Below, in pieces: positions 5,535 through 35,086 of a stretch of 64,000 nucleotides of DNA. Position 1 is the stretch's first letter. Every line of letters begins with the position of its first letter. The position numbers and the translations under genes are program-made. Under the pieces are notes generated by a model. That model saw only the letters and a list, made by a program, of their open reading frames with translations. It searched no databases and had not been told where the DNA came from. This DNA comes from a bacterium (GTDB taxonomy: Bacteria > Elusimicrobiota > Elusimicrobia > Elusimicrobiales > UBA9959): NCBI GenBank assembly GCA_021789695.1, contig JAJYJH010000008.1, positions 8,595 to 72,594 on the forward strand, in the 5' to 3' direction.

Positions 5535-5543
5535 GAGACCGCG

Positions 5544-6389: not shown

Positions 6390-6406
6390 ACAGCGAGGAC
6401 AAAGAT

Positions 6407-13437: not shown

Positions 13438-13441
13438 AAAT

Positions 13442-13470: not shown

Positions 13471-13503
13471 CTTTCAGGGAAAGATGCGGGCCCGGAGAAA
13501 TCC

Positions 13504-15088: not shown

Positions 15089-15096
<8 letters not shown>
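13504..15096 (+). CDS. nadB: L-aspartate oxidase
   Basis: DFIVVGSGAAGL FAD fold, HFFCGGV and GANRLASNSLLE. GGAGAA lies before ATG 13504. The upstream 1.1 kb of the track ORF is rejected. Confidence 0.9.
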
Positions 15097-17898
<2,802 letters not shown>

Positions 17899-17902
<4 letters not shown>

Positions 17903-20710: not shown

Positions 20711-21463
20711 ATGAGGACGGCTTCCAGAAAACTCGTCGCGCTGGCCAGGGCGGAATGGAGACTGCGCCAGCAGAGCACCTTTCTCGGCTTCCTGTGGACG
20801 CTGCTCAATCCGGCGCTCATGTTCGCCGTGCTCTACGGGCTGTTCGTGAAATGGCTCGGAAGGGCGCAGGAAGGGTACGCCGTATTCCTGCTGATCGGCA
20901 TAGTGGAGTGGAATTTCTTCGCCACGGCCAGCACCTACGCCCTTTCCAGCCTGCTGCGGCGCGGAGCGCTGCTCAAGAACTACCCGCTGGCGCTGGAGGT
21001 GCCGGTCCTGGCCTCGGTACTGAGCGTCTATTTTTCGCACCTGCTCGAGTTGGCGGCTCTCGCCGGCTTACTCTCCGTCTTTCTGTCCCCGCCTTCAGGC
21101 TCGTGGCTGTGGCTGCTGCCGGTGGACGCCGCCTACCTGTTACTGACCGCCGGCGCCGGCCTGCTGCTGGCCGGGGCCTTCGTCTTCTTCTCGGACATGG
21201 AGCGTATCTGGAACATACTGCTCACCGCCGGCTTCTTCCTTACACCGGTCTTTTACCCGCTCGCCGTGATCGCCCCTGATAAACGCAGGCTGCTGGCGCT
21301 GAACCCGCTCACCTCTATAATAGAGGCGGCCCGCGCGGCCTTTTCTGGCGCATCCCCAGAGCCGGAGCGGCTGGCCGGGGCCTGGCTCTGGGGCGCCGCC
21401 GTCCTCGCCGGCGGCTTTCTTTTCATCAGGCTCAAGCGCGGCCCCATGGCTGACAGCCTATGA
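20711..21463 (+). CDS. ABC-2 type polysaccharide export permease (Wzm/TagG-like)
   Basis: FLGFLWTLLNPALMF signature region and six TM helices. Confidence 0.75.
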   Translation: MRTASRKLVALARAEWRLRQQSTFLGFLWTLLNPALMFAVLYGLFVKWLGRAQEGYAVFLLIGIVEWNFFATASTYALSSLLRRGALLKNYPLALEVPVLASVLSVYFSHLLELAALAGLLSVFLSPPSGSWLWLLPVDAAYLLLTAGAGLLLAGAFVFFSDMERIWNILLTAGFFLTPVFYPLAVIAPDKRRLLALNPLTSIIEAARAAFSGASPEPERLAGAWLWGAAVLAGGFLFIRLKRGPMADSL

Positions 21464-23037
21464 GCGGCCTTTCCGTTTCCGGAGTGGCAAAAGCCTACCG
21501 CGTGGAGCTTCCGCGCGAGGACGCGCTATCATCCCTTGTGCGCTTCTTCAGCGGGCGCTCTCCCTCGCGCCCTTTCCTCGCGCTGGATGGAATCTCGTTC
21601 GAGCTCGCACCCGGAAAGGCGCTGGCTCTGCGGGGGCACAACGGCTCCGGCAAGACCACGCTGCTGAAGATTCTGGCAGGCATAACGGCGCCGACCTCCG
21701 GTTTTGTCTCTTTCTCGGGCAAAAGGGCCTGCCTTCTGGGCTTCGCCTCGATACTGCAGGACCGCCTCAGCGTAAAGGAGAACGCACGGCTTTGCGCCAT
21801 TTTTTTTGAGTTGCCGGGGGACCCCGCCGAGAACGCGGAGAGGATAATGGCCGCGGCGGGGCTGGAGCATCTGCGCAACGCGCGCGCTGGAGAGCTCTCC
21901 TCGGGCATGCGGCTGCGGCTGCCCTTCATGGCGGCCCTCTCGTCCGGGGCGGACCTCTTCCTGCTGGACGAGACGCTGGCCGTTGGCGATGCCGATTTCA
22001 GGCGCGAATGTCTAGCCAGGCTGGCCGGGCTAAAGCGCTCCGGGGCCATGCTGGTATTCGCTACCCACGACGACGCGCTGGCCATGGCGCTGGCCGACGA
22101 GGCACTGCTGCTGGAAGCCGGCAGGCCGCTTTACCTGGGGCCTGCGCACGGTATGCCGGGCGCGGCGCAACCAGCCGAAGGAGCCCTCGCGCGCGCTCTC
22201 GCCCGGTTCGCCATCCTTTTCGCCAGGCTCCGCTCTGAAGGGTTCGAGCTGCGCGAGGCGCCGCCGGCTTCCGACGAGGACCTGCTGCTCGTCCACACTC
22301 CGGTCTGGCTGGCCAGGCTGAAGGCCAACGATCTCTCTCCAGACGAAGAGCGCCTGCTGCTGCTCCCTTCGTCGCGCACGCTCCTGCCGCGTGCCTGGCG
22401 CATGGCCGGCGGTACGCTGGCCGCGGCCAGAAGGGCCCTGGCCTCCGGGCTTGGCGTATATCCGCCCGGAGGAGGGCACCATGCCTTCCCGGACCGCGGG
22501 GCCGGTTTCTCCGCGGTCAACGACATAGCCATAGCCGCGCGCCGCCTGCTAAAGGACGGCCTTGTTCGCCGCCCGGCCGTGATAGATCTGGACGCCCACC
22601 AGGGCAACGGCACCGCTTTCATCTTTCCTTTGGGAGAGGTCGCCACCTTTTCCGCTCACCGGGCCGGCGGCTACCCCATTAACAGGCACCGCTCGACGCT
22701 GGACGTGGAGCTCCCCCCGGGCGCCGGCGACGCAGACTATCTGGCCGCCGTGGAGAAAGGCCTAGGAGATTTTCTGGCCGCCTCCGCTCCGGACTTCGTT
22801 TTCGCGCTCTGCTCAGGGGACCCCTACGAAAAAGACCCGCTGGGCGGGCTGAAACTCTCCAGGAACGGCCTGCGGGGGCGCGACGAGCTCTTGTTCCGCC
22901 TGCTGAAGGAAGTGCCGGTCTGCCTTCTGCTCGGGGCCTCCTACTCACCACCCGAGGAGGCGGCTGAAATAGACCTGGCCGCCGTCAAAGCGGCGTTTTC
23001 GGCCCGTCCTTCGGCCGAGCGCGTGATAGACGTCTGA
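21460..23037 (+). CDS. Wzt/TagH-like ABC ATPase fused to an HDAC-family (arginase/deacetylase fold) domain
   Basis: N-terminal GHNGSGKTTLLK, LSSGMRLRL and LFLLDETLAVGD. C-terminal PPGGGHHAFPDRGAGFSAVNDIA, VIDLDAHQGNGT and SGDPYEKDPLGGLKLS. One uninterrupted ORF. Confidence 0.8.
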   Translation: MSGLSVSGVAKAYRVELPREDALSSLVRFFSGRSPSRPFLALDGISFELAPGKALALRGHNGSGKTTLLKILAGITAPTSGFVSFSGKRACLLGFASILQDRLSVKENARLCAIFFELPGDPAENAERIMAAAGLEHLRNARAGELSSGMRLRLPFMAALSSGADLFLLDETLAVGDADFRRECLARLAGLKRSGAMLVFATHDDALAMALADEALLLEAGRPLYLGPAHGMPGAAQPAEGALARALARFAILFARLRSEGFELREAPPASDEDLLLVHTPVWLARLKANDLSPDEERLLLLPSSRTLLPRAWRMAGGTLAAARRALASGLGVYPPGGGHHAFPDRGAGFSAVNDIAIAARRLLKDGLVRRPAVIDLDAHQGNGTAFIFPLGEVATFSAHRAGGYPINRHRSTLDVELPPGAGDADYLAAVEKGLGDFLAASAPDFVFALCSGDPYEKDPLGGLKLSRNGLRGRDELLFRLLKEVPVCLLLGASYSPPEEAAEIDLAAVKAAFSARPSAERVIDV

Positions 23038-23083: not shown

Positions 23084-23923
23084 TCAGCGCTGGAACTCGT
23101 AGGAATAGAGGATATAGAGCAACGCCCGGACCGCGAAAGCCGGGGTCATGAAGGATTCCGTGCCGGAGGCGTTTTTCAGCGCCGCCCGGGCCGCCCAGTA
23201 GGAGGCCGTCGGACTAGTAAGGTCGCGGGTCAGGCGTAGCCTCCAGCCGGAGCCGGCGGCCCCGTTCAGGTACTCCTCCCGTGAATGTATCCGCGTGACG
23301 TAGGCCTTATCCGCCAACGTGGCGTACCTGCGTCCGAGGCGGTGCGCCGAATTTCGCGTCCAGGCTATTACTACCAGCCTGGCCCCCGGCCTTGCCACGC
23401 GGGCCGTTTCGCGGAAGAAAGCTGGCAGGGCGGGCACGTGTTCGGTGGACTCGCAGGCCCAGACCAGGTCGAAGGAACCGCGCCCGAAGGGCAGGTCAAG
23501 CATGGAGGCCTTAGAAAAACGCACACGTCCGGAGAGACCACGCGCCCTGGCGGCGGCCCTGGCGGCCGAGGCCTGATAGCCGGATAGAGTAACGCCGCGC
23601 ACCGTCAGGGCCGGATACCTCTCCGCCAGCAGCAGGCTAGATCCGCCGCGGCCGCACCCGGCGTCCAGCAGACTGGCGCCTGGACGCGGCCTGCCCAGGT
23701 ACCTGAAGCCCAACTTTGCAAGCGCCGTCTCGGAATCGTGTATCATCCTTTCCGCCCCGGCGGGAGCGGCCTTGGCGAAGCGCCGCAGGAAGGAGACCCT
23801 GTCGGCTACCAGCCCGTTGTGATGGTGTATTATCCCGTCTGAGGCCAGACGCCAGTTAAAGTCCTTGCGCTTGGAGTCGTAGAGGGCCGCCACCTTTGCC
23901 AGCCAAGGGTCCCCGGCCCTCAC
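23084..23923 (-). CDS. Class I SAM methyltransferase resembling prenyl-diphosphate (GPP 2-C-) methyltransferases
   Basis: LLDAGCGRGGSS SAM motif, N-terminal IIHHHNG, then VRGVTLS, MLDLPF and IHSREEYL. From memory this pattern matches the GPP C-methyltransferase family. Confidence 0.65.
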   Translation of the reverse strand: MRAGDPWLAKVAALYDSKRKDFNWRLASDGIIHHHNGLVADRVSFLRRFAKAAPAGAERMIHDSETALAKLGFRYLGRPRPGASLLDAGCGRGGSSLLLAERYPALTVRGVTLSGYQASAARAAARARGLSGRVRFSKASMLDLPFGRGSFDLVWACESTEHVPALPAFFRETARVARPGARLVVIAWTRNSAHRLGRRYATLADKAYVTRIHSREEYLNGAAGSGWRLRLTRDLTSPTASYWAARAALKNASGTESFMTPAFAVRALLYILYSYEFQR

Positions 23924-24435
23924 GCAGCCCCCTTCAGCGCGGCAGCGAAGGCAAGAGCCAGGCGCCGCGCCGAGGCGGATGGGCAGAAGCGCTCACGCGG
24001 CCTCGGCAGCGCCATGGCGGCTGGCATCGCAGCCATCTCTCCGGAGAACGCGGCGTGCAGGGCCAGGGCCGCCCGGGCCGGCAGCCGCGGGCCGGAAAAG
24101 AGGAAGAAGCGGGAATAGTTCCCCAGAGCCATCGCGAAATTGAGGGTCATCGGCATATCCATGCCGGGAAGCGGCCCGCCGCCGCGCGCATAGGCCGCGG
24201 CAATCTCCTGGGAGGCCTGCCAGAGACGCAGCGAAATCACTAGACGGCGGCGCAGTGACGCCGGGAGGGAACGCGGAATATCTTTTTCAGCGGTAACCGG
24301 CCTGCGGCAAAGCCGCGAGGCCGGCCCGAAGAAGGCGGCGCGGGCGGCGTGTGGGTCACAGGAAAAAGGCAGGGGTCCCAGGACGGCCCTGTGCCAGGCC
24401 GGCACCGAGCGCTTAACCGGAAAAATGGCCCTCAT
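23920..24435 (-). CDS. Hypothetical protein
   Basis: ATGA overlaps at both ends tie it into the operon. No recognisable motif. Confidence 0.45.
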   Translation of the reverse strand: MRAIFPVKRSVPAWHRAVLGPLPFSCDPHAARAAFFGPASRLCRRPVTAEKDIPRSLPASLRRRLVISLRLWQASQEIAAAYARGGGPLPGMDMPMTLNFAMALGNYSRFFLFSGPRLPARAALALHAAFSGEMAAMPAAMALPRPRERFCPSASARRLALAFAAALKGAA

Positions 24436-25142
24436 CCGCCGAAGGCCTCCCGCACCGAGGCCAGCCTGGCGGCGCTCACCGAGCGGGAACGGTCGGAGCC
24501 GAAACAGACGGCGCCGCGCAGGCCGACTATGTCGGGCCCCAGCCCCCGCAGTACCGGCAGCATCCGCACTCCTACGGAGCCGGCGAGGGCGGTCTTAAGG
24601 CCGGCGGCGCGGGCCAGGCGCAAAAAGCGCGCCAGCTCCGGGCGCGTCATGTTGTCGAAAAGGGAACGCCCGTCCTTAAGGGCTGTGTCCAGCATGACGG
24701 CGGCGGCTCCGGCCCTCTTAGCCGCACGCACCAGGGGCCAGGGCGCCAGCCCGCCGAAACGGCGCCAGTCCGCATAGCCGGCTATGACCGGCAGCGCGCG
24801 TGGCGCCGCCGAGCGTACGCCTTTGACCACGGCGCTGGCCAGCTCGAAGGCCCTGGCCTCGGTCCTGACGCCGTAGAGCCCGGCCTTGACGTAATCCGCG
24901 CCTATCGAGGCCGCGGCGTAGGCCGCAAGCGCTGCTGTGCCCGGCTTGAAATCCAGGTCGCCTATCGCGGCGCTGAACTCTACGGGATAACGCCGAAGCC
25001 GGCGGACTATCCCGGCCAGCACCCAGGGGAAATTGGCCCCCAGCGAGCCTTCATTGACGTTCTTGAGGTCCAGGATATCGGCCCCGCCGCGGGCCACGAG
25101 CAGGGCCTCGCGCAGGTCCACAGGGCTGACTAGAAGTTTCAT
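24432..25142 (-). CDS. (5-formylfuran-3-yl)methyl phosphate synthase homologue (MfnB / DUF556 family)
   Basis: MKLLVSP start, GSLGANFPWV, AAIGDLDFKPGTA, GADYVKAGLYG, AGYAD, MLDTALKDGRSLFD, ALAGS and IVGLRGAVC. An alternative ATG lies at 25160. Confidence 0.7.
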   Translation of the reverse strand: MKLLVSPVDLREALLVARGGADILDLKNVNEGSLGANFPWVLAGIVRRLRRYPVEFSAAIGDLDFKPGTAALAAYAAASIGADYVKAGLYGVRTEARAFELASAVVKGVRSAAPRALPVIAGYADWRRFGGLAPWPLVRAAKRAGAAAVMLDTALKDGRSLFDNMTRPELARFLRLARAAGLKTALAGSVGVRMLPVLRGLGPDIVGLRGAVCFGSDRSRSVSAARLASVREAFGG

Positions 25143-25143
25143 C

Positions 25144-26199
25144 TTATTTGTCGCGTTCATCGGCCATGTAATACGCCAGAGAGCGGAGCAGCGAAAGTTC
25201 CCGCAGGCGCAGGCGGCAGGAACCCAGTTCGCTGAGCGCCCTTCGGCGGAACACGTCTATCATGCGGCGGTTCTCCTCCACCGCGCCGCTCCGGCGGACT
25301 ATATCTATAACATTTTTAAGGGCCGCCATGGAAATGGACGCGTCCCCCAGCGCCGCTCCCAGCGCCGCCCGCTGCGCCGGGGCGGAAAAGCGCATGGCGG
25401 TAAGGTAGAGATACGTGTACCGTCCTGCGGTTATATCGTCGGCCAGCGGTTTTCCCCAGGCCTCGGAACGCGGGAAGAGGTTCAGCTCGTCGCCGTGCAG
25501 GTGATAGGCCATGCCGAGCCAGGAGCCGGCCGCCTCGAAGCGCGGCAGTTCCCGGCGGCCGCAGCCGCCAAGCAGCGCCCCTATCCTGAAGGGACCGGTG
25601 AAGGAGAGGAAACGGATACGGTCCCAGCTCATGGAGAGATACTCCTCCGCTGACGGCGCCCTGCGCCCCGCCGTCCACCAGAGTTCCACGGACTGCCCGT
25701 AACCGTAGGCGAAGATCTCCGAGGAGAACGTGCGCAGTATGTACTCCCGGCGCCAGTCCTCCAGCCGCAGGGACGGGGAAAGGAAAACGCGCCAAGCCCA
25801 GTTATAGGACGCCTGATACGCCAGGTAGGCGTTCTTCTCGCCGTAGAGCCTGTGCGCGGCAGGGCCCCCGCGGCGGAGGGCGGAGCCGTCTATTATGTCG
25901 TCGAAACTGACCGTGGAGGCCTCCATTAGTTCGATGGCGCCGAAGACCTCCTCGTAATCCGCCGGCGCCTTGCCGAAAGCCTCCAGCAGCAGGCGGGCTA
26001 TCAGCGGACGCAGCAGTTTTCCCGGTCGCTCAAGGTAAAGACGCGCGGGCGCGTTGATCCCGCGGCGGAGGGCGGCGGAGGCGGAGAGACCGGCCGCCCT
26101 GAGCCAGTCGGTAGGGAAGACGCGCGGGAAAGCCGCGCGCGAAGCCCGCAGCAGCTGCGGCAGCGCCGCGGCGTAATAGGCCGCCAGGGCGGGGGACAT
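25144..26199 (-). CDS. Polyprenyl synthase-family paralogue with a degenerate second Asp-rich motif
   Basis: RPGKLLRP, first motif FDDIID plus RRGGPAAH, and second motif HGDELN in place of DDxxD. Confidence 0.7.
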   Translation of the reverse strand: MSPALAAYYAAALPQLLRASRAAFPRVFPTDWLRAAGLSASAALRRGINAPARLYLERPGKLLRPLIARLLLEAFGKAPADYEEVFGAIELMEASTVSFDDIIDGSALRRGGPAAHRLYGEKNAYLAYQASYNWAWRVFLSPSLRLEDWRREYILRTFSSEIFAYGYGQSVELWWTAGRRAPSAEEYLSMSWDRIRFLSFTGPFRIGALLGGCGRRELPRFEAAGSWLGMAYHLHGDELNLFPRSEAWGKPLADDITAGRYTYLYLTAMRFSAPAQRAALGAALGDASISMAALKNVIDIVRRSGAVEENRRMIDVFRRRALSELGSCRLRLRELSLLRSLAYYMADERDK

Positions 26200-26237
26200 T
26201 CCGCCGCCCTGCCGCCGGAGATGGACGGGGCAGTTTT

Positions 26238-27269
26238 TCAAGACGCCCTCCCGGCGAGGCGGCGGACGAAAGCCTTTAGCGCCTCCCCGTAGCCGCCGTT
26301 CATGGCCGGAAGCAAGGCCCGCTCCAGCACCGCCATGGCGGAGCCTGTCCTCGCGGCCGCGGTGGAACGGCAATACGCCGCGGCACCGCTGGCGATCATC
26401 GCCTCCCGGGCACGGGTCACGTCCGCCTCCCGTGGCACGGTCCCGGGAGGCCGCGAATAAAGGCGGAGCAGGAAGGAACGGCCGACGGAGGAGGAGCGCC
26501 GCAGGGCGTGCCAGAGCAGCAGCGTGCGCTTGCCTTCCCGTATGTCGTTGCCCGGAGCTTTTCCGAAGCCGGTCCCGCCGTCGTTCTCCAGGTCCAGAAC
26601 GTCGTCCATGAGCTGAAAAGCGGCGCCGAGGTGCCGTCCAAAAACATTAATCGCACCGAAGAGGTCGTAACGTCCGGCGAGGACGGCGGCCAGCCTGCAC
26701 GGGCCCGTGGTGGTATAGGAGGACGTCTTCATGTCCGCCAGGCGGAAGTAAGCGCGCGGCGAAAATTCTCGCGGCGGCCTACCCCGCCAGACCAGCTCCA
26801 GGTGCTGTCCCTGGAGCGCGCGCCGGACAGCGGTATAAAACTCGCCGAATACCGGACCGAACTCCCGCGGCCCGAGCAGACAGTTGCCGTAGAGCATCTC
26901 CGGTATGTAGGTGGCTGTGAGGTCCAGCGCGTTGATAGCGGCCTCCTCGCCGCACAGGCGGTGGAGCGCCGGGCCGCCGCGTCTCGTCTCGGCGTGATCC
27001 ATAAGGTCGTCGCGGCCGAGACCCCAGTTCTCAAGAAGTTCGTAGGCCGCCGCGAGGCGGGAGGCCTTCCTGTAGCTCCCCCCGAGCCCTCCGGCGAACA
27101 GGCACAGCAGGACGGAGCGCAGCGCCTTGCCGCGGCGCCGCGGATAGGCCGTGATGCATCCGCGCAGGCCGGGGTCCATGCCCGCCGTCTTTTTCTCAAG
27201 CCAGCCGTCCATGACCGCGAAGACGTCCCGGCGCACTTTCACGGCATAGGCGTCAAGACTTATCGCCAT
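26238..27269 (-). CDS. Polyprenyl diphosphate synthase (canonical motifs)
   Basis: RDDLMD...RRGGPALH and FQLMDDVLDLE...GK...NDIREGKRT. GGGAGG Shine-Dalgarno. Confidence 0.8.
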   Translation of the reverse strand: MAISLDAYAVKVRRDVFAVMDGWLEKKTAGMDPGLRGCITAYPRRRGKALRSVLLCLFAGGLGGSYRKASRLAAAYELLENWGLGRDDLMDHAETRRGGPALHRLCGEEAAINALDLTATYIPEMLYGNCLLGPREFGPVFGEFYTAVRRALQGQHLELVWRGRPPREFSPRAYFRLADMKTSSYTTTGPCRLAAVLAGRYDLFGAINVFGRHLGAAFQLMDDVLDLENDGGTGFGKAPGNDIREGKRTLLLWHALRRSSSVGRSFLLRLYSRPPGTVPREADVTRAREAMIASGAAAYCRSTAAARTGSAMAVLERALLPAMNGGYGEALKAFVRRLAGRAS

Positions 27270-27873
27270 AAACCTCCCTCAGGGTCGAACCTAGAAAGCC
27301 GCGCGGAAGAAGAAGGGCGGACTCGGCCCGGGAGCGGCGCGCAGACCAACCGGCGCCGACGGCGAGCGCGGCCTCTCGGCAAGCGCGCGCGCCGCCTTCC
27401 CCCAGGCCCAGTTCCAGCGCGCGGAAAAAGAAGGCGGCCCGCAGGGCCCACCCCTCAGGAGAAACTTCTTTCGCCACGCCTGGGCGCAGCAGAGATCCGG
27501 AAATGGCAGCTCCGGCCTCCACGAAGAAACCCTCAAGAGCCTGGCGGCGTTCCGCCGGGAAGCAGCGCGCGGCCAGGCGCTCCGCCAACGAAACGGCCGA
27601 AAGCAGCAGCAGGATATCGCCCCCCCGCAGGGCGGCGGTTGCGCGCCTGCCGCAGGCCTCCCTGGACCTCAGCCATGGCTGCTGCGCAGCCGAGAGGGCG
27701 TCTGCGGAAGCCAGCAGCCGGGGCGGGACGCGCGTCCCAGGCCAGAGCAGCCTCACCGCCCTGCCAGCAGGGGTGCGCGCAAGGAGGAGCCGTGCCTCGG
27801 AAGAAGGCCATGGCCTTCCCGGCGGTCCGGCCAGGAGGGCCGCGGCAAGCTGGGCCACTGGGCCGCGCTTCAT
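27253..27873 (-). CDS. Hypothetical Ala/Leu-rich helical protein
   Basis: Operon-embedded, with overlaps at both ends. No motif recognised. Confidence 0.4.
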   Translation of the reverse strand: MKRGPVAQLAAALLAGPPGRPWPSSEARLLLARTPAGRAVRLLWPGTRVPPRLLASADALSAAQQPWLRSREACGRRATAALRGGDILLLLSAVSLAERLAARCFPAERRQALEGFFVEAGAAISGSLLRPGVAKEVSPEGWALRAAFFFRALELGLGEGGARACREAALAVGAGWSARRSRAESALLLPRGFLGSTLREVYGDKS

Positions 27874-28973
27874 TTCGTCCTCCGTGCCGAAAGATAAAGC
27901 GGCAGGCGCAAAAAAAGGGCGCGAGAAGCCCGCGGCAGGCTAAGCTCCGCGACGAGGCGCAGGGCGCGGGCATTGAGGGACGCGATAGAGGCTTCCGTTT
28001 CCTCCACCGCGCCGCAGTCGCGGGCCGCCCGGATGGCGCGCTGCAAGGCGCTGCGGGAAGGTTTCCCCGAAAGGACGGAATCCGCCGCGCGGGGGTCGTC
28101 CCGTTTCAGGCGAGCCAGAGCCGCCGAGGTCAGGAAGGTGGCTTTGCCGGCCAGAAAGTCGTCGCCGGGGAGTTTCCCCCAGGAAGGGTCTTCCGGAAAG
28201 AGGTTGAGCATATCGCCGCGCAGGTGATAGGCCGCGCCAAGGGTCTCTCCGAGAGCGCAGAACTCGGCCTGCCTGGCGCGCGGAAGGCCGGCGCAGACCG
28301 CCGCCGCGCCGAGCGGGCCGGCGAAGGAAAGGATCGAGATCCTGTCGCGCACGTTATCGAGATAGGCGGCCATGGTTACGGGCCCTTGAGCTTCGGCCAG
28401 GAGCGGTTCCGACAGGTGGCCGCGACAAGCCCTGAAATAATAGGAATTCATGAGCTCGTGAAGGTGTAGCCTCTGCCTGGACCCGAGGGGCAGCGCCGGG
28501 TGGTCCGGCACTCCCAGGCAGAGATGAAAGACGGCCATGGCGGCCGCGGCCGCCCGGGGGCCGTATACCAGCTGCGCCGCGCGGGCCCCGCGCCGGCGCG
28601 GAGAGGAGTCCAGTGCATCGTCGAGCATCACGGTGGCGGACTCCATCACCTCGAGCATCCACAGCAGGGGACGGAACTCTTCCGGGGCGCGCCCAGCCGC
28701 CTGCAGAGCCAGCATGGCCAGGTAAGGGCGAAGCAGCTTGCCCGGCCTGTCCAGATAATAGCGCAGCACCGACCAGTCCGTCCCCGCCAGCCCGGCGCGC
28801 CCTGGCCTGGCCAGAAGTTCCGGCACCGCGGAAAAGGAATACTCTGCCAAAGCGCCCCGGATGACCGGCAGACAGGCCCGGTAATGCCCGGCCAGTTCCG
28901 GCCCCATCTCGCCGGCCGCCTCCGGAGATGGTTCCCCCCAGCCCGGGCCGAAAGGCTTTGGACGCCCGGCCAT
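27870..28973 (-). CDS. Polyprenyl synthase-family paralogue with a degenerate second Asp-rich motif
   Basis: RPGKLLRP, MLDDALD...RRRGARAA, and RGDMLN in place of DDxxD. Clear paralogue of 25144-26199. Start taken at 28973 (a 1-nt overlap with the upstream stop). Confidence 0.7.
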   Translation of the reverse strand: MAGRPKPFGPGWGEPSPEAAGEMGPELAGHYRACLPVIRGALAEYSFSAVPELLARPGRAGLAGTDWSVLRYYLDRPGKLLRPYLAMLALQAAGRAPEEFRPLLWMLEVMESATVMLDDALDSSPRRRGARAAQLVYGPRAAAAAMAVFHLCLGVPDHPALPLGSRQRLHLHELMNSYYFRACRGHLSEPLLAEAQGPVTMAAYLDNVRDRISILSFAGPLGAAAVCAGLPRARQAEFCALGETLGAAYHLRGDMLNLFPEDPSWGKLPGDDFLAGKATFLTSAALARLKRDDPRAADSVLSGKPSRSALQRAIRAARDCGAVEETEASIASLNARALRLVAELSLPRASRALFLRLPLYLSARRTK

Positions 28974-29797
28974 CAGGATACCAGCCAGCCCGCCAGCACG
29001 CAAAGCAGCATCAGGTTGGCGGAAAGAAGATAAAGCTCGTAGAACCAGCGCGGCGGGCGGAAGGAGGCGGCCGCCGCGGCGGCCATCGTCCAGAGGGTCC
29101 AGGCGGAATCGGCCTTCTCCCCGAGAAGAAGATGCCGGAGCAGGACCGGCGCCAGCAGCAAGGCCAGCGCCGCGGCTGTAGCCCTCAGACCGAGAAGTAC
29201 GGGCACGCTGCGCACGCCGGCTTCGGCGTCCCCGCTGTAGTCGCGCATATCCAGGATCACACTAAGGGCCAGGATGAACGGGATAAGCATCCATGTCGCA
29301 CGGATCAGGGCCGCAGCGGCCGTCCACGAGAAGGCGTGGTGCAGCAGGAACGGGGCAAGAACCCCGACGCCCCAGAACGCGGCCAGGTTCACCAGGGTCT
29401 TGAGCGCCGGCACCCTCTTTATAAGAGTTACGCCGTTGAAAGGGACCGCGTACAGCGGCACGAAAACCACGGAGAGGACCAAAAGCGGGCGGAAGGGGGT
29501 AAGCAGCAGGATATAGAGCGAGTCGGCCAGCAGCAGCGCGCCGAAGAAGGCCGGCGGGGGCGGGGAAATCCTCAGTTCCCCGGCCGGCACGTTGACGGAA
29601 TCCTCTTTCTGCGAGAACAGGCGGTCCAGCAGATAAGCCAGCTGGATCATGACGGCCAGCGCGCCGCCGGCCGCGATGGCGGCGGCCTTCAGCCCCCCCA
29701 TGGCCGAGGCCATATTGAGAAAAAGCAGGAAAGCCGCCAGCGGGAGCTGGACCCGGAACGAGGAAACGAACCCGTAGACAGCGGAGAATGCCCTCAT
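28973..29797 (-). CDS. UbiA-superfamily-like membrane prenyltransferase (divergent first motif)
   Basis: Eight or nine TM helices. The second motif DMRDYSGDAEAGVRSVP fits DxxDxxxD-x3-G-x2-[ST]-x-P. The first motif YLLDRLFSQKEDSVN is degenerate. Confidence 0.55.
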   Translation of the reverse strand: MRAFSAVYGFVSSFRVQLPLAAFLLFLNMASAMGGLKAAAIAAGGALAVMIQLAYLLDRLFSQKEDSVNVPAGELRISPPPPAFFGALLLADSLYILLLTPFRPLLVLSVVFVPLYAVPFNGVTLIKRVPALKTLVNLAAFWGVGVLAPFLLHHAFSWTAAAALIRATWMLIPFILALSVILDMRDYSGDAEAGVRSVPVLLGLRATAAALALLLAPVLLRHLLLGEKADSAWTLWTMAAAAAASFRPPRWFYELYLLSANLMLLCVLAGWLVS

Positions 29798-30807
29798 ATA
29801 AAAAAACGCGGCTTCTGGCCCCAGACTATGGTCTCGGGCTGCACCACCATGGTGACTTGCACTCCCGAAAAAACGGCCGCCAAGTCCGGGGCGCCGACGC
29901 CGCGGCGCAGAGCGAAGAAAGGCGCCGCCAGCAAGGCCTCCAAAGGGTTCAGGCGCCTGAGCCTTCCCAGATATCGTCCACGCCATCTGCGGCTCAGCTC
30001 CTGCGCTGCGGAAAAGAACTCCGGAGAATGGAAACGCCGGCCGCGCCCGGAGGACACTGCGAAGAACCATTTATTCTTCCCGGTGGAAGAGGACGGGAGC
30101 GTGGCGCAGAGGCGGAAGCCGGGGACCGCGCCGGAAAGGGCCGACAGCACGGCCCCGGCCCCGCACTCCGACTCCAGCAGTGCGGCCCGCTCCGGGCCGG
30201 AAACGCTCTCGGGGGTCTTAAAGGCCACGAAAAGGACCAGGTCGGCAAGATCGGGCCTGGACAGGGCCCAGGAGTGGACCGCCGGCGCTCCGTCGAGGTT
30301 GCGCCTGGAGACGGTCATGTTGAAATAGCAGGAGCCTACTCCGGCGTCGCGCACCATCCCCCCGAGGCGCGCGCGCAGGGAATTGAGCGCGGCCTCGTCG
30401 GCTCCTTTCCAGCCCTCCCGGTCCTGCATGGAGTCCACGTGAAGACAGACCCCGGCTAGGCCCGCGGATTTAAGCGCCTTCAGGCGCGCCGGGGACAGCA
30501 GGGAACCGTTGGTATTTACGAAGGGGCGCAGTCCGGCTCTGGCCGCGTGCCTGACCGCCTCCTCGATATGCGGGTAGCACAACGGATCGCCTCCTGCGAA
30601 AGCCAGGACGTCCGTGCGCACCCCCGAGGCCACCGAGTCTATCTCGGCCAGGACTTCTGGCAAAGACCTGTGCTTACCCGGAAAATTGGAGGAAAAGCAG
30701 CCAGGGCAGTGCATATTGCACTCCTTCGTAGGCTCCAGCCAGGTAATTATAGTGTCGGCAAGAGTCCAAGGCAGGCGGTATGGCCGCGGCGTTGCGGATA
30801 AGGTCAT
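29794..30807 (-). CDS. Radical SAM protein
   Basis: ECNMHCPGCF (CX3CX2C), FAGGDPLCYP, and GGAGGA/GGAGAA Shine-Dalgarno. First gene of the operon. Confidence 0.75.
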   Translation of the reverse strand: MTLSATPRPYRLPWTLADTIITWLEPTKECNMHCPGCFSSNFPGKHRSLPEVLAEIDSVASGVRTDVLAFAGGDPLCYPHIEEAVRHAARAGLRPFVNTNGSLLSPARLKALKSAGLAGVCLHVDSMQDREGWKGADEAALNSLRARLGGMVRDAGVGSCYFNMTVSRRNLDGAPAVHSWALSRPDLADLVLFVAFKTPESVSGPERAALLESECGAGAVLSALSGAVPGFRLCATLPSSSTGKNKWFFAVSSGRGRRFHSPEFFSAAQELSRRWRGRYLGRLRRLNPLEALLAAPFFALRRGVGAPDLAAVFSGVQVTMVVQPETIVWGQKPRFFI

Positions 30808-30921
30808 TTATTCTCCGTCCTCCGCAAGAAAATGCGCCTCGTCGCCGGCCGGATGCCGGTCATTCTCCTGGCACGGAGAGATCTCGCGGGCTGCATCGAT
30901 AGCGGCTTTTCCTTAAGTCCC

Positions 30922-30927
30922 ATTATA
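30922..30927 (-). promoter_or_regulatory. Candidate -10 (TATAAT) for the radical SAM-to-methyltransferase operon
   Basis: Minus-strand TATAAT about 115 nt upstream of ATG 30807 in the 165-bp gap. No clear -35. Confidence 0.3.
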
Positions 30928-30972
30928 TTAAATGCCTCGCCGCCGGGGCGCTTGGGCCGCGTCGGAATGCGG

Positions 30973-31743
30973 TCAGGCGCGGCCTGGCCCGAGCAGCGTA
31001 CCCGGCCGGGACCGTCCGGCGAGAAAGGAAACGAGGCCCTCCGGGCGCCTGCCGTCGAGCACGAGGGCCCGCCCCCCTCCTCGCACTATCTCCAGCAGTT
31101 CGGCAGCCTTGCCGCGCATCCCCCCGCTTACGTCTCCCGGCTCCCGGGGACAGGCGCGGGAGAACGCCTCCAGGCCCGGCTCGTCCAGCTCCGGCAGCAC
31201 CGCGCCGGCGGCGTCCAGCAACCCCGGCGCGTCGGTGAAGAATACCGCCAGGCGCGGCCGCAGCAGCCCGCAGAGCCCGACGGCCAACGCGTCGCTGGAG
31301 ACCACTACGCCGCCCCCAGTCCCGTCGGGAAATATACCGCTGGAGACCACCGGCACGAGTCCTGACGCCAGCGGGGCCTCGATAGCAGAAGCATCCGCGG
31401 GCACGGGGCGCCCCCCCCTCAATAAAAAATACTCCGGCCCCGGCACACTTCCGACCACCAGCCCGGCCGAGCGCAGTTCCCGGAGAAATGCCAGATGAAG
31501 GCGCAGAAGGGAAGTATTGATGGCGTCTACGGGCGCCCCGCCCGGAGGTACCCTGCCGGACAGGTAGCCGTAGCGAAGGGCCGGAGGCTTGCCGAAGGAA
31601 CCGGTGCCGTGGACCAGCGCGAAAGGCTCGCGCAGTTCTGCCAGAGAGGCCGCCAGGCGCGAGGCGGCCGCCCGGTCAAAGACCGGAGACTCCCCTTTGC
31701 GGGTTATCACGCTGCCACCGGCTTTTATCACCAGCATCGCCAT
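30973..31743 (-). CDS. Isopentenyl phosphate kinase family (amino-acid-kinase fold) protein
   Basis: VIKAGGSVITRK, LVHGTGSFGK, LVPVVSSG, FFTDAPGLL and DVSGGMRGK, aligned by eye to archaeal IPK motifs. Confidence 0.65.
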   Translation of the reverse strand: MAMLVIKAGGSVITRKGESPVFDRAAASRLAASLAELREPFALVHGTGSFGKPPALRYGYLSGRVPPGGAPVDAINTSLLRLHLAFLRELRSAGLVVGSVPGPEYFLLRGGRPVPADASAIEAPLASGLVPVVSSGIFPDGTGGGVVVSSDALAVGLCGLLRPRLAVFFTDAPGLLDAAGAVLPELDEPGLEAFSRACPREPGDVSGGMRGKAAELLEIVRGGGRALVLDGRRPEGLVSFLAGRSRPGTLLGPGRA

Positions 31744-31761
31744 ATATTATAAAATTTTGGT

Positions 31762-32814
31762 ATGAGCTCCGGAGCCAAAGACGGGAAGGGCGGGCCTGAG
31801 CCGGGGAAGCCGTCACCCCGCGCGCTGCTTGAGCTGGCCGCGCTTAAGGCCAGACTCCTGAAACTGCCTGAAGGCGCCCCCGGCACGCTCTATATCGCGC
31901 TCACCTACCGCTGCGATCTCTCCTGCCGTCACTGCAAGTACCGTTCCTCGGCGCCGGGCCCGGATATGCCGTTCGGAGACCTGAGGCGGCTGCTGGAAAA
32001 CGCCGCCGCCTCCGGCATACCCCGCGTCGCCTTTTTCGGCGGAGAACCGCTACTCTACCCGCGCCTGGAACAGGCCGTGCGCCTGGCCTCGGGACTTGGG
32101 CTTTTTACGCAGCTGGACACCAACGGCCAGACGCTGGGCGCCCGGAGGGCCTTGGAACTTGCAGCCGCCGGGCTCTCCCTTGCCACTATCAGCCTGCACT
32201 CCGCCGATGAGGCCGGGCACGACGCCCTAAGCGGACTTGGCTCATTCCGCAAGGCCATCGCGGCGGTTTCGGCGGCCCTGCGCGCCGGGCTCTTCGTCCA
32301 CGTCTCCTCTTGTTTCTTCTCGGCCGGGCTTTCCTCCGGAGAACCGGGCCGGCTGGCGGCCTTCGCCCGCGGCCTGGGCGCCCACGGCGCAAGGGCGCTG
32401 CTCTATTCCCCGCCGGAGGGCGGTTCCGCGGACCTGCCGCGCCGCTTGTCAAAGGCCTTGGCCGCGGCCGACCTGGACGGCTTCTCGCGCGGCTGCGTCC
32501 GCTCCGGCCGGCGAGCCTGCGCCGCAGCCGCCGGGGACATACTTTTCACGGACGCAGGATTGAACGTGAAGAGCTGCCCCTACTCCGTCCGGTCGCTGGG
32601 AAAGGCCACGGCCGGGCTGCGCCGCTTCTTCGGCGGCGAGCGCGCTCCCGCCGGTCTCTTCCCCTGCCATTCCCCACGCCCATCCTGCCGCGCAGCTAGC
32701 GCAGGCCGTAATTTTGCTAAAATAATCAGATGCGAGAGGCTAGGAAGAACAAAGCCATATCCGAATCCGTCAGCTGGCGCAAGACCGGTGAAGAGGCCGT
32801 CCTCCTTGACCTAG
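31762..32814 (+). CDS. Radical SAM peptide-maturase-like enzyme with a partial SPASM/twitch region
   Basis: YRCDLSCRHCKY (CX3CX2C), FFGGEPLLYP, and C-terminal C-x12-G-x5-C (ACAAAAGDILFTDAGLNVKSC). The last ~30 codons run across an AT-rich spacer into the PqqD gene. Confidence 0.75.
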   Translation: MSSGAKDGKGGPEPGKPSPRALLELAALKARLLKLPEGAPGTLYIALTYRCDLSCRHCKYRSSAPGPDMPFGDLRRLLENAAASGIPRVAFFGGEPLLYPRLEQAVRLASGLGLFTQLDTNGQTLGARRALELAAAGLSLATISLHSADEAGHDALSGLGSFRKAIAAVSAALRAGLFVHVSSCFFSAGLSSGEPGRLAAFARGLGAHGARALLYSPPEGGSADLPRRLSKALAAADLDGFSRGCVRSGRRACAAAAGDILFTDAGLNVKSCPYSVRSLGKATAGLRRFFGGERAPAGLFPCHSPRPSCRAASAGRNFAKIIRCERLGRTKPYPNPSAGARPVKRPSSLT

Positions 32815-33014: not shown

Positions 33015-33115
33015 AACGCCAGAAGACCAGCCAGCCCAAACAGAAAAAATACCGCAAACCGCAGATAAAATCCCACGGCAAGCTAAGTGAAGTCGCCTCG
33101 GCGTTCAAGCCCTAA
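33011..33115 (+). CDS. Candidate RiPP precursor peptide, 34 aa (MKRQKTSQPKQKKYRKPQIKSHGKLSEVASAFKP)
   Basis: Not in the ORF track (below 60 aa). The ATG overlaps the PqqD stop (ATGA), and GAGGGGG lies 7 nt upstream. The Y14-P17-I19-G23 spacing equals the RRE-recognised leader motif YxxPxL-x3-G. Locally A-rich. Confidence 0.55.
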   Translation: MKRQKTSQPKQKKYRKPQIKSHGKLSEVASAFKP

Positions 33116-34070
33116 GCGGAAGACCGCTTTTCTTTTCCCGGGCTCCGGGGCGCAATACCCCGGGATGGGGCGCGCGTTGCGGAACGCCTTCCCCCCGATA
33201 GAGCGGCAGCTCGCCTTCATCGACCGCGCCGCGCTGCGTCCCCTTTCCGCCGCGATGGACGGGCCGGCCAGTCTCCTTTTTCCGGAGAAGACGCACGCGG
33301 ACCCGACCGTGTTCATGGAAGTAGTAATGGAACTGTCGCTGGCCGTGGCCTTGTCCATGACGGAGGCCGGCGCCCATCCTGACGCGGCAGCAGGGCGCAG
33401 CATGGGCGAATACAGCGCCGCCGCCTTCACCGGTGTATTAACGATGAGCGACTGCTTTGAACTGGTCCGCTTCGTGACGCTGAAGGGGCAGGAGGACTGC
33501 CTGGCGCAGCCGAGCGTTCTCGCGACGGTTTACGGCCTGACCAGGCGCGAGCTCGCGGCGGCGGCGGCAAAAGTGGCCGCTGCCGGTGAACCCTGCGAAG
33601 TGACAGTCTTCTACGACAAGGCCCGCCTCGGAGTGGCCGGCCTGCGCGAAAGCGCCCTGCCGTTGCTAAAGAAGGCCCTCTTACCGCTGCGCCACCGACT
33701 GAGCCTTTCGCGGGAACCCGGGGCCTTCCACACAAGCCTTTTCGACAGGCTGGCCGCCGGGGCGGCCGCGAAATTCGGGGAAACGCCCTTCTCCGCGCCG
33801 GCCATGCCACTTTACATGAACGCCGACGCGCGCAGGGCCACCTCCGCGCGGACCGTCAGGGAGAAGTTGGCAGCGGCGCTGAACAGCCCCGTACTCTGGC
33901 AGGAGACCATAGAGCGCATGCTGGCCGACGGGGTGCGTAACTTCGTGGAGCTGGCGCCAGGCGCGATGCTGACCGAGTTCGTCTGCGAACTGCCGCCCGA
34001 CGCCGAGGTCCTGCGCACGGACACTCCCGGGAACTACGCCAGAACCCTGCAAAGGCTGGCCGGGAAATGA
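33087..34070 (+). CDS. FabD-like acyltransferase (malonyl-CoA:ACP transacylase family)
   Basis: FLFPGSGAQYPGMG and nucleophile elbow GRSMGEYSA. The only in-frame start is GTG 33087, inside the small ORF. Confidence 0.75.
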   Translation: MKSPRRSSPKRKTAFLFPGSGAQYPGMGRALRNAFPPIERQLAFIDRAALRPLSAAMDGPASLLFPEKTHADPTVFMEVVMELSLAVALSMTEAGAHPDAAAGRSMGEYSAAAFTGVLTMSDCFELVRFVTLKGQEDCLAQPSVLATVYGLTRRELAAAAAKVAAAGEPCEVTVFYDKARLGVAGLRESALPLLKKALLPLRHRLSLSREPGAFHTSLFDRLAAGAAAKFGETPFSAPAMPLYMNADARRATSARTVREKLAAALNSPVLWQETIERMLADGVRNFVELAPGAMLTEFVCELPPDAEVLRTDTPGNYARTLQRLAGK

Positions 34071-35086
34071 TCCCGACGGAAGAACTTCACTTCGACCTCG
34101 GCGGCTGCAGGGTACTATTCTCCTGCGGGGACCCGCTCCTCTCCTTCGCCGTAGCCGCAAGCCTGTCCGCTTTCTCGGCCCCGCCCGGACACCCGGACAT
34201 CAGCATATCCGCCGAACTCGGCACAGTCTCCTCCGCGGGCCTCTCCCCAGCCCTCTTCTCCACGCGGCGCTGGAAAGTACTCAAGGCCCCGGCCGGCAGA
34301 CGCCTGGTCTGGTACCCGGAAGGGGCCGTCTGCGAATACGATTTCAGGACGCGCACCGGACGGCTGCGCTCCGCCGACCGCGCGCTGTTGGAGGAACTCT
34401 CCTATCTGCTGATACTGTCGCGGGCCGGGGAGGAACTAGACCTGGCCGGACTGCACAGGCTGCACGCCGGCGCGCTGGGCCACTCCGGGCAGGCGCTGCT
34501 CTTCTGCGGCCCGCGCGGCTCGGGTAAGACCACGCTGTTGCTGGAGCTGCTCAAGGACTCCGCTTTTTCGCTGCTTTCCGACGACACGCCGCTGGTGAGC
34601 GCGGACGGGTCGGTGCTGCCTTTTCCGGCCCGCGTCGGCCTTGCGCTCGACAGCCCACATCTGCCCGGCTTCGGCGGTCTGCGCCGGCTGGAGCGCCGCC
34701 ATTATCCGCCCAAGCGCCTGCTTGACACCGTCAAGGCGGGCTTCAGGCTGGCGGGCCCGCTGCCGCCCGGGGCTCTTTTCCTGCTCAGGCGCTCGGAACG
34801 GGCGCGGATACGCCGCGCGGCCATTCCCGCCGCCGCGGCGGAACTGGCCGTCTCGCTGGCCGTCGGCTGGGGCGTGCCGCAGCTGGCCGAATACTTCCTG
34901 AGGGCGGAACCGGAAGATCTCCTGCGCAAGGGCGGCATACTGGCCTCCAGGCTTCGGGCCGCGGCCCGCCTGCTCCGGCGCTCCGGCCGCTATATCTTCG
35001 AACTTTCCCCCGACCACGCGAGAAACGCGCAGGAACTCAGGGCCTTCCTTGGCAGCGGCAGCGCGCAGGGCGCGCGCGGCCTCTGA
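34067..35086 (+). CDS. HprK-related kinase (HPr kinase C-terminal-domain-like P-loop protein)
   Basis: LFCGPRGSGKTTLLLEL followed by LLSDDTPLV. ATGA overlap with the acyltransferase. Confidence 0.6.
   Translation: MIPTEELHFDLGGCRVLFSCGDPLLSFAVAASLSAFSAPPGHPDISISAELGTVSSAGLSPALFSTRRWKVLKAPAGRRLVWYPEGAVCEYDFRTRTGRLRSADRALLEELSYLLILSRAGEELDLAGLHRLHAGALGHSGQALLFCGPRGSGKTTLLLELLKDSAFSLLSDDTPLVSADGSVLPFPARVGLALDSPHLPGFGGLRRLERRHYPPKRLLDTVKAGFRLAGPLPPGALFLLRRSERARIRRAAIPAAAAELAVSLAVGWGVPQLAEYFLRAEPEDLLRKGGILASRLRAAARLLRRSGRYIFELSPDHARNAQELRAFLGSGSAQGARGL

Follow-up and report, generated by a model that had tools for sequence, protein, structure and literature searches.

What would a bacterium make with a furan-forming enzyme that is encoded among the enzymes of prenyl-chain synthesis? 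The question is raised by a 64,000-nt stretch of DNA from an uncultured groundwater member of the Elusimicrobiota (assembly GCA_021789695.1, contig JAJYJH010000008.1, positions 8,595 to 72,594; hereafter the window). Here an operon of nine genes on the minus strand holds a homologue of the furan synthase MfnB together with a canonical polyprenyl diphosphate synthase, two polyprenyl-synthase-like (PPS-like) paralogues A and B, a UbiA-family prenyltransferase, a radical SAM (S-adenosylmethionine) enzyme, a methyltransferase and two hypothetical proteins, and is preceded by a gene for a kinase resembling isopentenyl phosphate kinase (IPK). MfnB condenses two molecules of glyceraldehyde-3-phosphate to 4-(hydroxymethyl)-2-furancarboxaldehyde phosphate (4-HFC-P). 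Its sole characterised role is in the synthesis of methanofuran or methylofuran (PMC8141765), cofactors that carry one-carbon (C1) units and the only products to which MfnB has so far been tied; the bacterial clade described below would give the furan a second, unrelated fate.

A first-pass annotation of the window, made from the sequence alone, proposed that furan and isoprenoid units are coupled here. The proposal is supported by the identity of the MfnB homologue, by the conservation of its pairing with prenyl synthases and by its linkage to the kinase; the product and the order of the steps are what we infer. Two of the outcomes that the annotation had named as refuting it, a missing MfnB/DUF556 score and a pairing kept in no related genome, could be checked on sequence, and neither came about. 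Judged from sequence and gene neighbourhood, some furan-isoprenoid hybrid is probably made. With less assurance, we propose that the operon may itself encode the pathway that merges the MfnB-made furan unit with isoprenoid units; the specific order of steps, in which the furan would serve as starter unit for a prenyl-synthase-like enzyme, is put forward more tentatively still. All of the enzyme families are known, and the novelty would lie in how they are combined and in the role in isoprenoid metabolism that this implies for a furan diphosphate; we class the locus as a hybrid biosynthetic operon, with a considerable chance of new chemistry. The statement that no such gene combination belongs to a described pathway held: the full-text literature gave no report linking MfnB with prenyl enzymes, which, coverage being incomplete, is absence of evidence only.

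The MfnB homologue and its operon

Membership of the MfnB/DUF556 family is clear for the product in question, which far exceeds the cut-off (22.4 bits) of the Pfam family PF04476 (E = 3.5e-71; Table 1) and falls just under that of the stricter NCBIfam equivalog NF002575 (277.1 against 304 bits). It aligns over its full length with Methanocaldococcus jannaschii MJ1099 (PDB 4rc1; 209 bits), and its residues D31, K33, K92 and D158 fall opposite D25, K27, K85 and D151 of that protein, of which D25, K85 and D151 are, we take it, the numbers of essential sites. These four Asp/Lys positions are invariant across an alignment of 15 diverse bacterial MfnB homologues. Two lysines and two aspartates are reported as indispensable in MfnB, the Schiff base being formed by Lys27 (PMC6604932).

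Family searches found none of the other genes that a methanofuran pathway would require. The genes mfnA, mfnC, mfnD, mfnE, mfnF and fwd, and formylmethanofuran or tetrahydromethanopterin (H4MPT) genes, were absent both from the window, as the first-pass annotation had stated for methanofuran and H4MPT genes, and from the linked loci examined. Outside the cluster, the window holds housekeeping functions (synthesis of 3-deoxy-D-manno-octulosonic acid and CTP, a NadB-like protein, UvrA, a type II secretion/pilus cluster and one tRNA), with no methanofuran, H4MPT, mevalonate or methylerythritol phosphate genes.

The nine genes run from 30807 to 23084, each overlapping or abutting the next, with the kinase gene 165 nt upstream. 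All ten open reading frames (ORFs) of the earlier description were found on the minus strand at the same coordinates, every domain call was upheld by Pfam and NCBIfam searches, and independent gene calls on four public contigs with an identical MfnB protein, one of them from the metagenome-assembled genome (MAG) GCA_027357245.1, gave the same genes. With the best-supported starts, the 165 nt between kinase and radical SAM genes are followed, down to the methyltransferase gene, by spacings of -4, -1, -4, -17, -4, -17, -4 and -4 nt; the overlaps of paralogue B with MfnB (17 nt), of MfnB with the 171-aa hypothetical protein hyp171 (4 nt) and of hyp171 with the methyltransferase (4 nt) point to translational coupling. 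A largest gap of 38 nt, as first reported, exists only if paralogue B starts at ATG 26199, and disappears with the better-supported TTG 26241 (17-nt overlap). The 165-nt spacer carries an AT-rich TAATATAAT in a context of 67% GC and, seven nt ahead of ATG 30807, the Shine-Dalgarno sequence GGAGG. A sigma-70 promoter scan gave matches at chance level, and an Rfam search of the whole window returned a single tRNA and, for the 165-nt leader, no riboswitch.

The ORFs are real genes rather than artefacts of high GC content, an explanation ruled out by codon changes: against the orthologues of a 90%-identical locus (L010; loci are cited by number where they must be told apart), synonymous changes outnumber non-synonymous ones in all ten genes, with synonymous fractions from 0.55 to 0.79. 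The highest value belongs to MfnB, the most constrained gene of the operon, and the lowest to the 206-aa hypothetical protein hyp206. The latter, like hyp171, belongs to no family, without any Pfam or NCBIfam match or similarity to the prenyl-synthase profile by hhalign; it was found in the window and L010 only by a tblastn matrix of the loci, and is probably coding.

Conservation of the pairing and of the linked kinase

MfnB and a polyprenyl synthase remain paired far outside the circle of close relatives. Among species-representative genomes, the nearest loci belong to the groundwater Elusimicrobia MAGs GWA2_62_23, GWB2_63_16, GWC2_64_44 and GWD2_63_28 and to Elusimicrobiales STC_50. In eleven further Elusimicrobia-type loci, the tblastn matrix and gene calls placed the canonical-type synthase, paralogue B, MfnB, hyp171 and methyltransferase genes together, and a PPS-like gene adjoins MfnB in L005, L007 and L010-L017. 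A locus of 33% GC (L008/L009), whose MfnB is only 55% identical, has two paralogue-type synthases, MfnB, the methyltransferase and a distant relative of hyp171, with no canonical synthase; divergent proteins of 268-270 aa in L005 and L008 are UbiA relatives. Outside the phylum, Streptomyces sp. NPDC088789 (L021, 6985-9574) has an overlapping operon of three genes, PPS-like, MfnB and AA_kinase, on a contig that ends 2.5 kb downstream, just past a transposase gene. Using an MfnB profile, we retrieved 80 loci from metagenomes; profile and Pfam searches of these showed all three genes, for MfnB, an IPK-like kinase and a PPS-like enzyme, in L025, L029, L051 and L055/L059, and a part of the set in L032. 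Furthermore, L105, reached from its kinase, has MfnB with a neighbouring PPS-like gene, in the order MfnB, kinase, AsnB, PPS, HAD (haloacid dehalogenase), UbiA. Besides the Elusimicrobia-type loci and Streptomyces, the pairing is thus present in five metagenomic lineages, usually along with the same IPK-like kinase subfamily and a UbiA prenyltransferase. At least seven lineages spanning 33-68% GC carry the link.

The accessory genes of the loci outside the Elusimicrobia encode an aldo-keto reductase, a fusion of short-chain dehydrogenase/reductase (SDR) with aldehyde dehydrogenase, an AsnB-like amidotransferase and a HAD phosphatase, and lipid-type export genes occur in L025 (MMPL) and L051 (LolA-like and MacB). 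The export genes and the first two enzymes, which act on aldehydes, speak for a furan-isoprenoid pathway. A third and different genomic context for bacterial MfnB was seen in L023 (1-8738), where a Chloroflexi-type MfnB is adjoined by two ketosynthase-like genes, an ORF of the size of an acyl carrier protein, an aldehyde dehydrogenase, an SDR and a UbiD-family decarboxylase.

When 98 MfnB sequences were placed in a neighbour-joining tree, a single clade took in every PPS-linked one and left MJ1099 outside. A PPS gene is present in 16 of the 20 loci of this clade and in none of 49 outside it (Fisher p = 2.5e-12), counting loci of at least 5 kb, which are not phylogenetically independent, on a tree without support values. 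This distribution bears on the reading in which the functions are only co-located, MfnB and the kinase serving a methanofuran-type C1 cofactor while the synthases, methyltransferase and UbiA make an unusual methylated polyprenyl lipid or quinone-like molecule. Such a division would agree with the one characterised role of MfnB, with an MfnB-kinase pair that stands alone in Phycisphaerales (below) and with the general knowledge that enzymes like geranyl diphosphate (GPP) C-methyltransferase (GPPMT) occur with dedicated synthases in non-canonical terpenoid pathways. It fits poorly with operon genes that overlap one another, with independent co-occurrence in several lineages over so wide a range of GC content, with the absence of PPS linkage outside the clade, and with the lack of mfnA, mfnC, mfnD, mfnF, fwd and H4MPT genes in the window and linked loci examined, and we consider it very unlikely.

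What could activate the furan phosphate for coupling? The gene upstream of the operon had been annotated as an IPK-family kinase; its position and AA_kinase fold (70.8 bits on Pfam) stand, but a bona fide IPK it is not, on either of two counts. It scores 92.8 bits on the model IPPK_Arch (NF040647), under the equivalog cut-off of 120, although its best solved relatives are IPKs (7lnt, 85 bits), and its motif HGTGSFGKPPA has Lys where the IPK structures 7lnt, 8u0k and 3ll9 have the His of GSFGH. In IPK structures, this His binds the substrate phosphate. The motif HGTGxxGKPxA is common to all MfnB-linked kinases, with Lys in 10 of 10 aligned and His in the three IPK structures. A role as IPK of a mevalonate pathway was also rejected for the window kinase, on the exchange of His for Lys and there being no genes of such a pathway in the window. 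On the IPK model, kinases linked to PPS genes reach 93-162 bits, against only 21-25 bits on that of MfnE, the kinase of the methanofuran pathway; the window kinase gave no match to the MfnE model (NF040622, cut-off 300 bits) at E <= 0.01. MfnE itself belongs to the AA_kinase superfamily, and its NCBIfam model cross-hits IPK.

Orthologues of the window kinase adjoin MfnB in Streptomyces (L021, 34% identity), in Phycisphaerales and in metagenomic loci. The Phycisphaerales kinase (L104, 8251-9789), a Lys variant, lies directly downstream of MfnB, an arrangement that recurs in over 100 contig blocks, and a prenyl synthase is absent within 9 kb. This kinase could stand in for MfnE, as a non-orthologous replacement, in the methanofuran synthesis of Planctomycetota. 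MfnE-like genes, for their part, occur near MfnB in the archaeal-type loci L019 and L064; an Alcaligenaceae locus (L020) checked for an Orf21/MfnE-type neighbour gave nothing informative. Thus two branches of the AA_kinase superfamily with phosphate-to-diphosphate chemistry are each genomically tied to MfnB, which argues that the kinase acts on the furan phosphate; we infer this action from the two-branch linkage as its strongest indirect evidence. That the subfamily tracks MfnB even where prenyl genes are lacking suggests the same. The idea that the furan phosphate is raised to a diphosphate has thus gained support, one IPK-like subfamily being linked to MfnB across phyla.

Prenyl enzymes, the candidate pathway and its rivals

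All three synthases of the operon pass the PF00348 threshold and have a DDxxD first motif followed by RRG. The second Asp-rich motif (FQ..DDxxD) is present only in the canonical copy, where it reads AFQLMDDVLD, and both of its motifs are thus intact; in sequence context this enzyme resembles a Thermus-type geranylgeranyl diphosphate synthase (GGPPS; ENWGLGRDD vs NWVLVHDD). Paralogues A and B keep FARM, GKxxR, RRG and a basic C-terminus, with YH..GDxLN in place of the second motif. Paralogue A is confined to the window and its close relative L010 in the tblastn matrix. Paralogue B has orthologues that adjoin MfnB in every Elusimicrobia-type locus, and beyond the phylum it is nearest to the PPS-like genes linked to MfnB in L025, L029 and L051 (E 1e-37 to 1e-44). 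Its family is rare, with 18 members among 1.84 billion representative clusters at E <= 1e-30. The MfnB-linked PPS-like enzymes share an N-terminal extension, [ML]PxxLxx[FY]Y, and have paralogue B as their best match. An altered second motif (YH..GDxLN/D) is also found in L025 and L051, and Streptomyces has NGFLDE. As a universal mark of MfnB-linked synthases, however, the altered motif was ruled out by the canonical forms in L029 and L055, and, not being universal, it gives no clear-cut sign of a new substrate.

Degenerate helical proteins are encoded beside the PPS-like enzymes in other loci (L029_336/L032_347, L025_357/L051_391 and L055_320), and relatives of two of them are fused to an MfnB-linked PPS-like catalytic domain in P0205 (671 aa; similar to L055_320) and P0207 (848 aa; similar to L025_357). 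These neighbours and natural fusions, a Rosetta-stone form of evidence, suggest that the PPS-like enzyme is two-component and works with a degenerate partner. In the window, that partner is possibly hyp171, whose family numbers 37 members, all of the Elusimicrobia lineage. Its AlphaFold model is a helical bundle (pLDDT 89, pTM 0.84) that appears weakly prenyl-synthase-fold-like: the top Foldseek matches in the PDB are nearly all GGPPS or farnesyl diphosphate (FPP) synthases, at scores that are not significant (TMq 0.52-0.58, E >= 0.2), and hhalign against the prenyl-synthase profile gave no significant score.

The methyltransferase scores 140.5 bits on GPPMT_Stmyces (NF041943, cut-off 400) and aligns end to end with the GPP 2-C-methyltransferases 4f84 (115 bits) and 3vc1. 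Further matches are BezA and a C6-FPP methyltransferase, so that its best solved relatives are prenyl-diphosphate C-methyltransferases, and by sequence it is a relative of enzymes that methylate C=C bonds of prenyl diphosphates. No partner of the terpene cyclase or 2-methylisoborneol synthase type was found in the cluster. The UbiA protein passes PF01040 (41.8 bits, cut-off 34.2) and has the second Asp-rich motif LDMRDYSGDAEAG (DxxDxxGD) and, as read from the sequence, the variant DRLFSQKED of the first; a phmmer search of solved structures found no usable relative, and the protein is too divergent for any characterised subfamily. UbiA genes are also present in L005, L007, L008, L025, L051, L055 and L105. 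The radical SAM enzyme has orthologues of 41-54% identity in L007, L013, L017 and L107, and a radical SAM gene lies directly upstream of MfnB in L029 and L032. Additionally, B12-binding radical SAM enzymes are encoded in or next to the MfnB-prenyl operon in L005 (7514-8941) and L007 (12123-13586), the latter with an extra methyltransferase, which suggests further C-methylation in those relatives.

A sequence of reactions can be proposed for these enzymes. MfnB would make 4-HFC-P, to which the IPK-like kinase would add a second phosphate, in parallel with IPK on isopentenyl phosphate and MfnE on the furan of methanofuran. Paralogue B with its degenerate partner would then ionise the furan-3-ylmethyl diphosphate and condense it with isopentenyl diphosphate (IPP), giving an analogue of GPP with furan in place of the terminal dimethylvinyl group. 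The rationale is that furan-3-ylmethyl diphosphate is an analogue of dimethylallyl diphosphate, with its C=C inside the ring and its cation stabilised by the ring oxygen; such stabilisation has reportedly been proposed for MfnF. The GPPMT-like enzyme would methylate the furan-bearing allylic diphosphate, a GPP analogue that could fit it as substrate; the canonical synthase may elongate the chain, UbiA would transfer it to an acceptor, the radical SAM enzyme would tailor the product, and the lipid would be exported.

The main rival to the furan as starter is the furan as prenyl acceptor, in which the synthases would make an ordinary or methylated polyprenyl diphosphate and UbiA would attach it to the furan ring or to the hydroxymethyl group of 4-HFC-P or a derivative. 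By the models of UbiA on 4-hydroxybenzoate and of digeranylgeranylglyceryl phosphate synthase (DGGGPS) on geranylgeranylglyceryl phosphate, the result would be a membrane-anchored furan head group, with the kinase acting before or after the UbiA step or recycling prenyl phosphates. As is generally known, the usual reaction of UbiA enzymes is to put a prenyl chain on a small polar acceptor, and a UbiA gene is found in nearly every locus with MfnB and a PPS-like gene; moreover, the operon has one canonical synthase, the UbiA of L025 weakly matches DGGGPS (E 0.002), and some linked kinases pass the IPK cut-off. Against this, the Streptomyces operon has no UbiA on the available part of its contig, which favours the furan as starter even though the contig ends beside a transposase; the kinase subfamily tracks MfnB without prenyl genes, the L008 locus lacks a canonical synthase, and chemical reasoning makes furan-2-carbaldehyde an electron-poor acceptor. 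We regard the acceptor role as somewhat unlikely, and computation does not separate it from the starter role.

Several points weigh against the furan as starter unit. A furfuryl cation would be destabilised by the formyl group, and neither a reductase nor an aminotransferase is obvious in the window; UbiA, not the PPS-like enzyme, could be the catalyst that handles the furan. The PPS-like enzymes of L029 and L055 keep a DDxxN/D second motif. MfnB-linked kinases of other lineages score 113-162 bits on the IPK model, on both sides of the cut-off, with L025 (144), L029 (162) and L104 (142) above it, so that linked kinases may yet have a true IPK role, and the kinase gene lies more than 10 kb from the MfnB operon in L007, L015 and L008, in the last of these at the far end of the neighbouring cluster. 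The dependence among loci in the association test, noted above, belongs here too.

Comparison with known systems sets the starter proposal in relief. With the methanofuran/methylofuran pathway, the locus shares an MfnB orthologue with the four active-site residues, a linked small kinase of the AA_kinase superfamily and, plausibly, the conversion of a furan-methyl phosphate to a diphosphate used as SN1 electrophile. It differs in lacking MfnA, MfnC, MfnD and MfnF, in a kinase that is IPK-like rather than MfnE, in an MfnB from a separate bacterial clade, and in its partners, namely prenyl synthases, UbiA and a methyltransferase of the prenyl-diphosphate type. The kinase has the fold of IPK and FomA and, presumably, their phosphate- or phosphonate-to-diphosphate-type chemistry, yet unlike IPK it is linked to MfnB and not to mevalonate genes. 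Methylated terpenoid pathways (GPP 2-C-methyltransferase with 2-methylisoborneol synthase, BezA, and the IPP and FPP C-methyltransferases) likewise place a GPPMT-family enzyme beside prenyl synthases; here the score is 140 against a cut-off of 400, and MfnB and UbiA stand in place of a terpene cyclase. Heteromeric trans-prenyl synthases (hexaprenyl and heptaprenyl, and GPP synthases of large and small subunits) also set a catalytic subunit beside a degenerate partner, but the catalytic subunit here has the altered GDxLN motif and the partners show no sequence relationship with small subunits already known. In UbiA pathways (ubiquinone/menaquinone, DGGGPS, decaprenylphosphoryl-5-phosphoribose synthase), the membrane enzyme is encoded with the synthase for its presumed prenyl donor; the UbiA of the window is very divergent, and no quinone-ring or glycerol-phosphate genes accompany it.

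If the furan is indeed a starter, furan diphosphate would be a new isoprenoid building block and a new class of substrate for enzymes of the prenyl-synthase fold. The existence of a rare synthase subfamily whose metal-binding motif is altered would also be accounted for, and new envelope lipids or cofactors would be indicated in uncultured phyla. The three-gene operon of Streptomyces is a minimal version, through which the hypothesis could be tested directly in a tractable host.

Table 1. Features of the operon and its surroundings, in window coordinates
Position	Strand	Feature	Evidence
23084-23923	-	Prenyl-diphosphate C-methyltransferase-like enzyme (GPPMT family)	GPPMT_Stmyces
23920-24435	-	Hypothetical 171-aa all-helical protein (hyp171), possibly a degenerate prenyl-synthase-fold partner	AlphaFold, Foldseek
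24432-25160	-	MfnB-type 4-HFC-P synthase homologue	Pfam 4HFCP_synth, 240 bits
25144-26241	-	PPS-like paralogue B, MfnB-linked subfamily (DDIID; AYHLHGDELN); proposed furan-isoprenoid condensing enzyme	Pfam polyprenyl_synt, 122.8 bits
26238-27269	-	Canonical trans-polyprenyl diphosphate synthase (DDLMD, DDVLD)	Pfam polyprenyl_synt, 145.6 bits
27253-27873	-	Hypothetical 206-aa protein (hyp206), lineage-specific	No family match; codon changes
27870-28973	-	PPS-like paralogue A (DDALD; AYHLRGDMLN)	Pfam polyprenyl_synt, 103 bits
28973-29797	-	Divergent UbiA-family membrane prenyltransferase, 274 aa	Pfam UbiA
29794-30807	-	Radical SAM enzyme; CxxxCxxC = CNMHCPGC (within ECNMHCPGCF)	Pfam Radical_SAM, 59.3 bits
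30808-30972	-	Spacer; probable promoter and ribosome-binding site for the nine operon genes (consensus level only)	AT-rich stretch, GGAGG
30973-31743	-	IPK-like AA_kinase, MfnB-linked subfamily; proposed furan-methyl phosphate to diphosphate kinase	Pfam AA_kinase
20711-23037	+	ABC-2 permease (20711-21463) and ABC ATPase/histone-deacetylase-like fusion (21460-23037); candidate exporter, convergent with operon	Pfam; identical contig L001
31762-35086	+	Divergent module; link to operon likely	Radical SAM, PqqD, peptide, acyltransferase, HprK-related kinase
31762-32814	+	Module radical SAM enzyme (PqqE-like)	Radical_SAM, 71.6 bits
32730-33014	+	PqqD	69.5 bits
33011-33115	+	34-aa PqqA-like peptide, MKRQKTSQPKQKKYRKPQIKSHGKLSEVASAFKP	Conserved C-terminus, codon changes
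33165-34070	+	FabD/MdcH-like acyltransferase	Family match
34067-35086	+	HprK-related kinase	Family match

The neighbouring peptide module and the wider cluster

Divergent from the kinase gene lies a module in which a conserved short precursor peptide, a PqqD-type recognition element and a radical SAM maturase are encoded together, as expected of a ribosomally synthesised and post-translationally modified peptide (RiPP) or a peptide-derived cofactor. The divergent starts of the kinase and the module radical SAM gene are no more than 18 nt apart (31743-31762), so that their promoters must overlap coding sequence or each other. The C-terminus of the peptide, SEVASAFKP, is invariant across the Elusimicrobia-type loci checked and the more distant, rearranged L107, and its codon changes (7-13 synonymous vs 2-4 non-synonymous) indicate strong purifying selection; a hairpin with a T-run follows the stop codon at 33114-33129. 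The module resembles pyrroloquinoline quinone (PQQ) and mycofactocin maturation in its short peptide with a PqqA-like [WY]xKP...EV, its separate PqqD, its PqqE-like radical SAM enzyme and the accompanying MftF-like family 2 glycosyltransferases (GT2). It differs in having no SPASM domain and no match that reaches an equivalog family cut-off, in its extra FabD-like and HprK-related genes, and in a core that ends in SEVASAFKP with neither Glu-X3-Tyr nor Val-Tyr.

Most Elusimicrobia-type loci keep a block of some 25 kb that includes the module and, in addition, the MftF-like GT2 genes, a further radical SAM gene, a family 1 glycosyltransferase (GT1) and the gene of a giant beta-helix protein; this larger cluster around the operon was not mentioned in the first-pass annotation. 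The ABC permease and ATPase-deacetylase pair is conserved in L007, L008 and L010-L017 and stays with the peptide module in L107. This rearranged locus keeps together the ABC-deacetylase, HprK-like, acyltransferase and GT1 genes, the SEVASAFKP peptide, PqqD, the module radical SAM enzyme, the kinase and the operon radical SAM enzyme, which argues for a functional link of module and operon. Part of the conservation may nevertheless be inertia, because synteny in this lineage extends to unrelated flanking genes (type II secretion, UvrA).

It is conceivable that the whole cluster serves one pathway, in which a furan and/or prenyl group is installed on the 34-aa peptide, for instance when an MfnF-like reaction alkylates Tyr, Ser or Lys or through a Schiff base between the aldehyde and Lys, giving a lipidated RiPP or peptide-derived cofactor that is glycosylated and exported. 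In keeping with this, the peptide, PqqD, radical SAM, acyltransferase, HprK-like, glycosyltransferase and ABC-deacetylase genes flank the operon in L007, L008 and L010-L017, the same set lies beside the kinase and radical SAM genes in L107, the kinase of L106 stands on the far side of the peptide/glycosyltransferase module, and the peptide is under strong purifying selection. Yet L005 has the MfnB-prenyl operon with no peptide module within 10 kb, the module occurs in none of the non-Elusimicrobia loci, and the synteny takes in the unrelated flanking genes just named; installation of the groups on the peptide is thus quite unlikely. An extension of our proposal for the furan as starter, that furan-3-ylmethyl diphosphate primes head-to-tail prenyl elongation as a non-isoprenoid unit and that the methylated product is, in Elusimicrobia, joined to or works with the radical-SAM-matured PqqA-like peptide as a new exported lipid-peptide conjugate or membrane-bound cofactor, is a speculation that we also hold to be unlikely, if a little less so.

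Beyond the module, a beta-helix protein of more than 1183 aa (36040-39591, minus strand), with a weak N-terminal match to signal peptidase I, lies between the two MftF-like GT2 genes (35037-36053 and 39612-40412) and has orthologues of 1472-1548 aa in L007 and L106. The block from 17900 to 42250 also stands out in base composition, at 67.7% GC against 63.6% to its left (1-17900) and 61.2% to its right (42250-64000).

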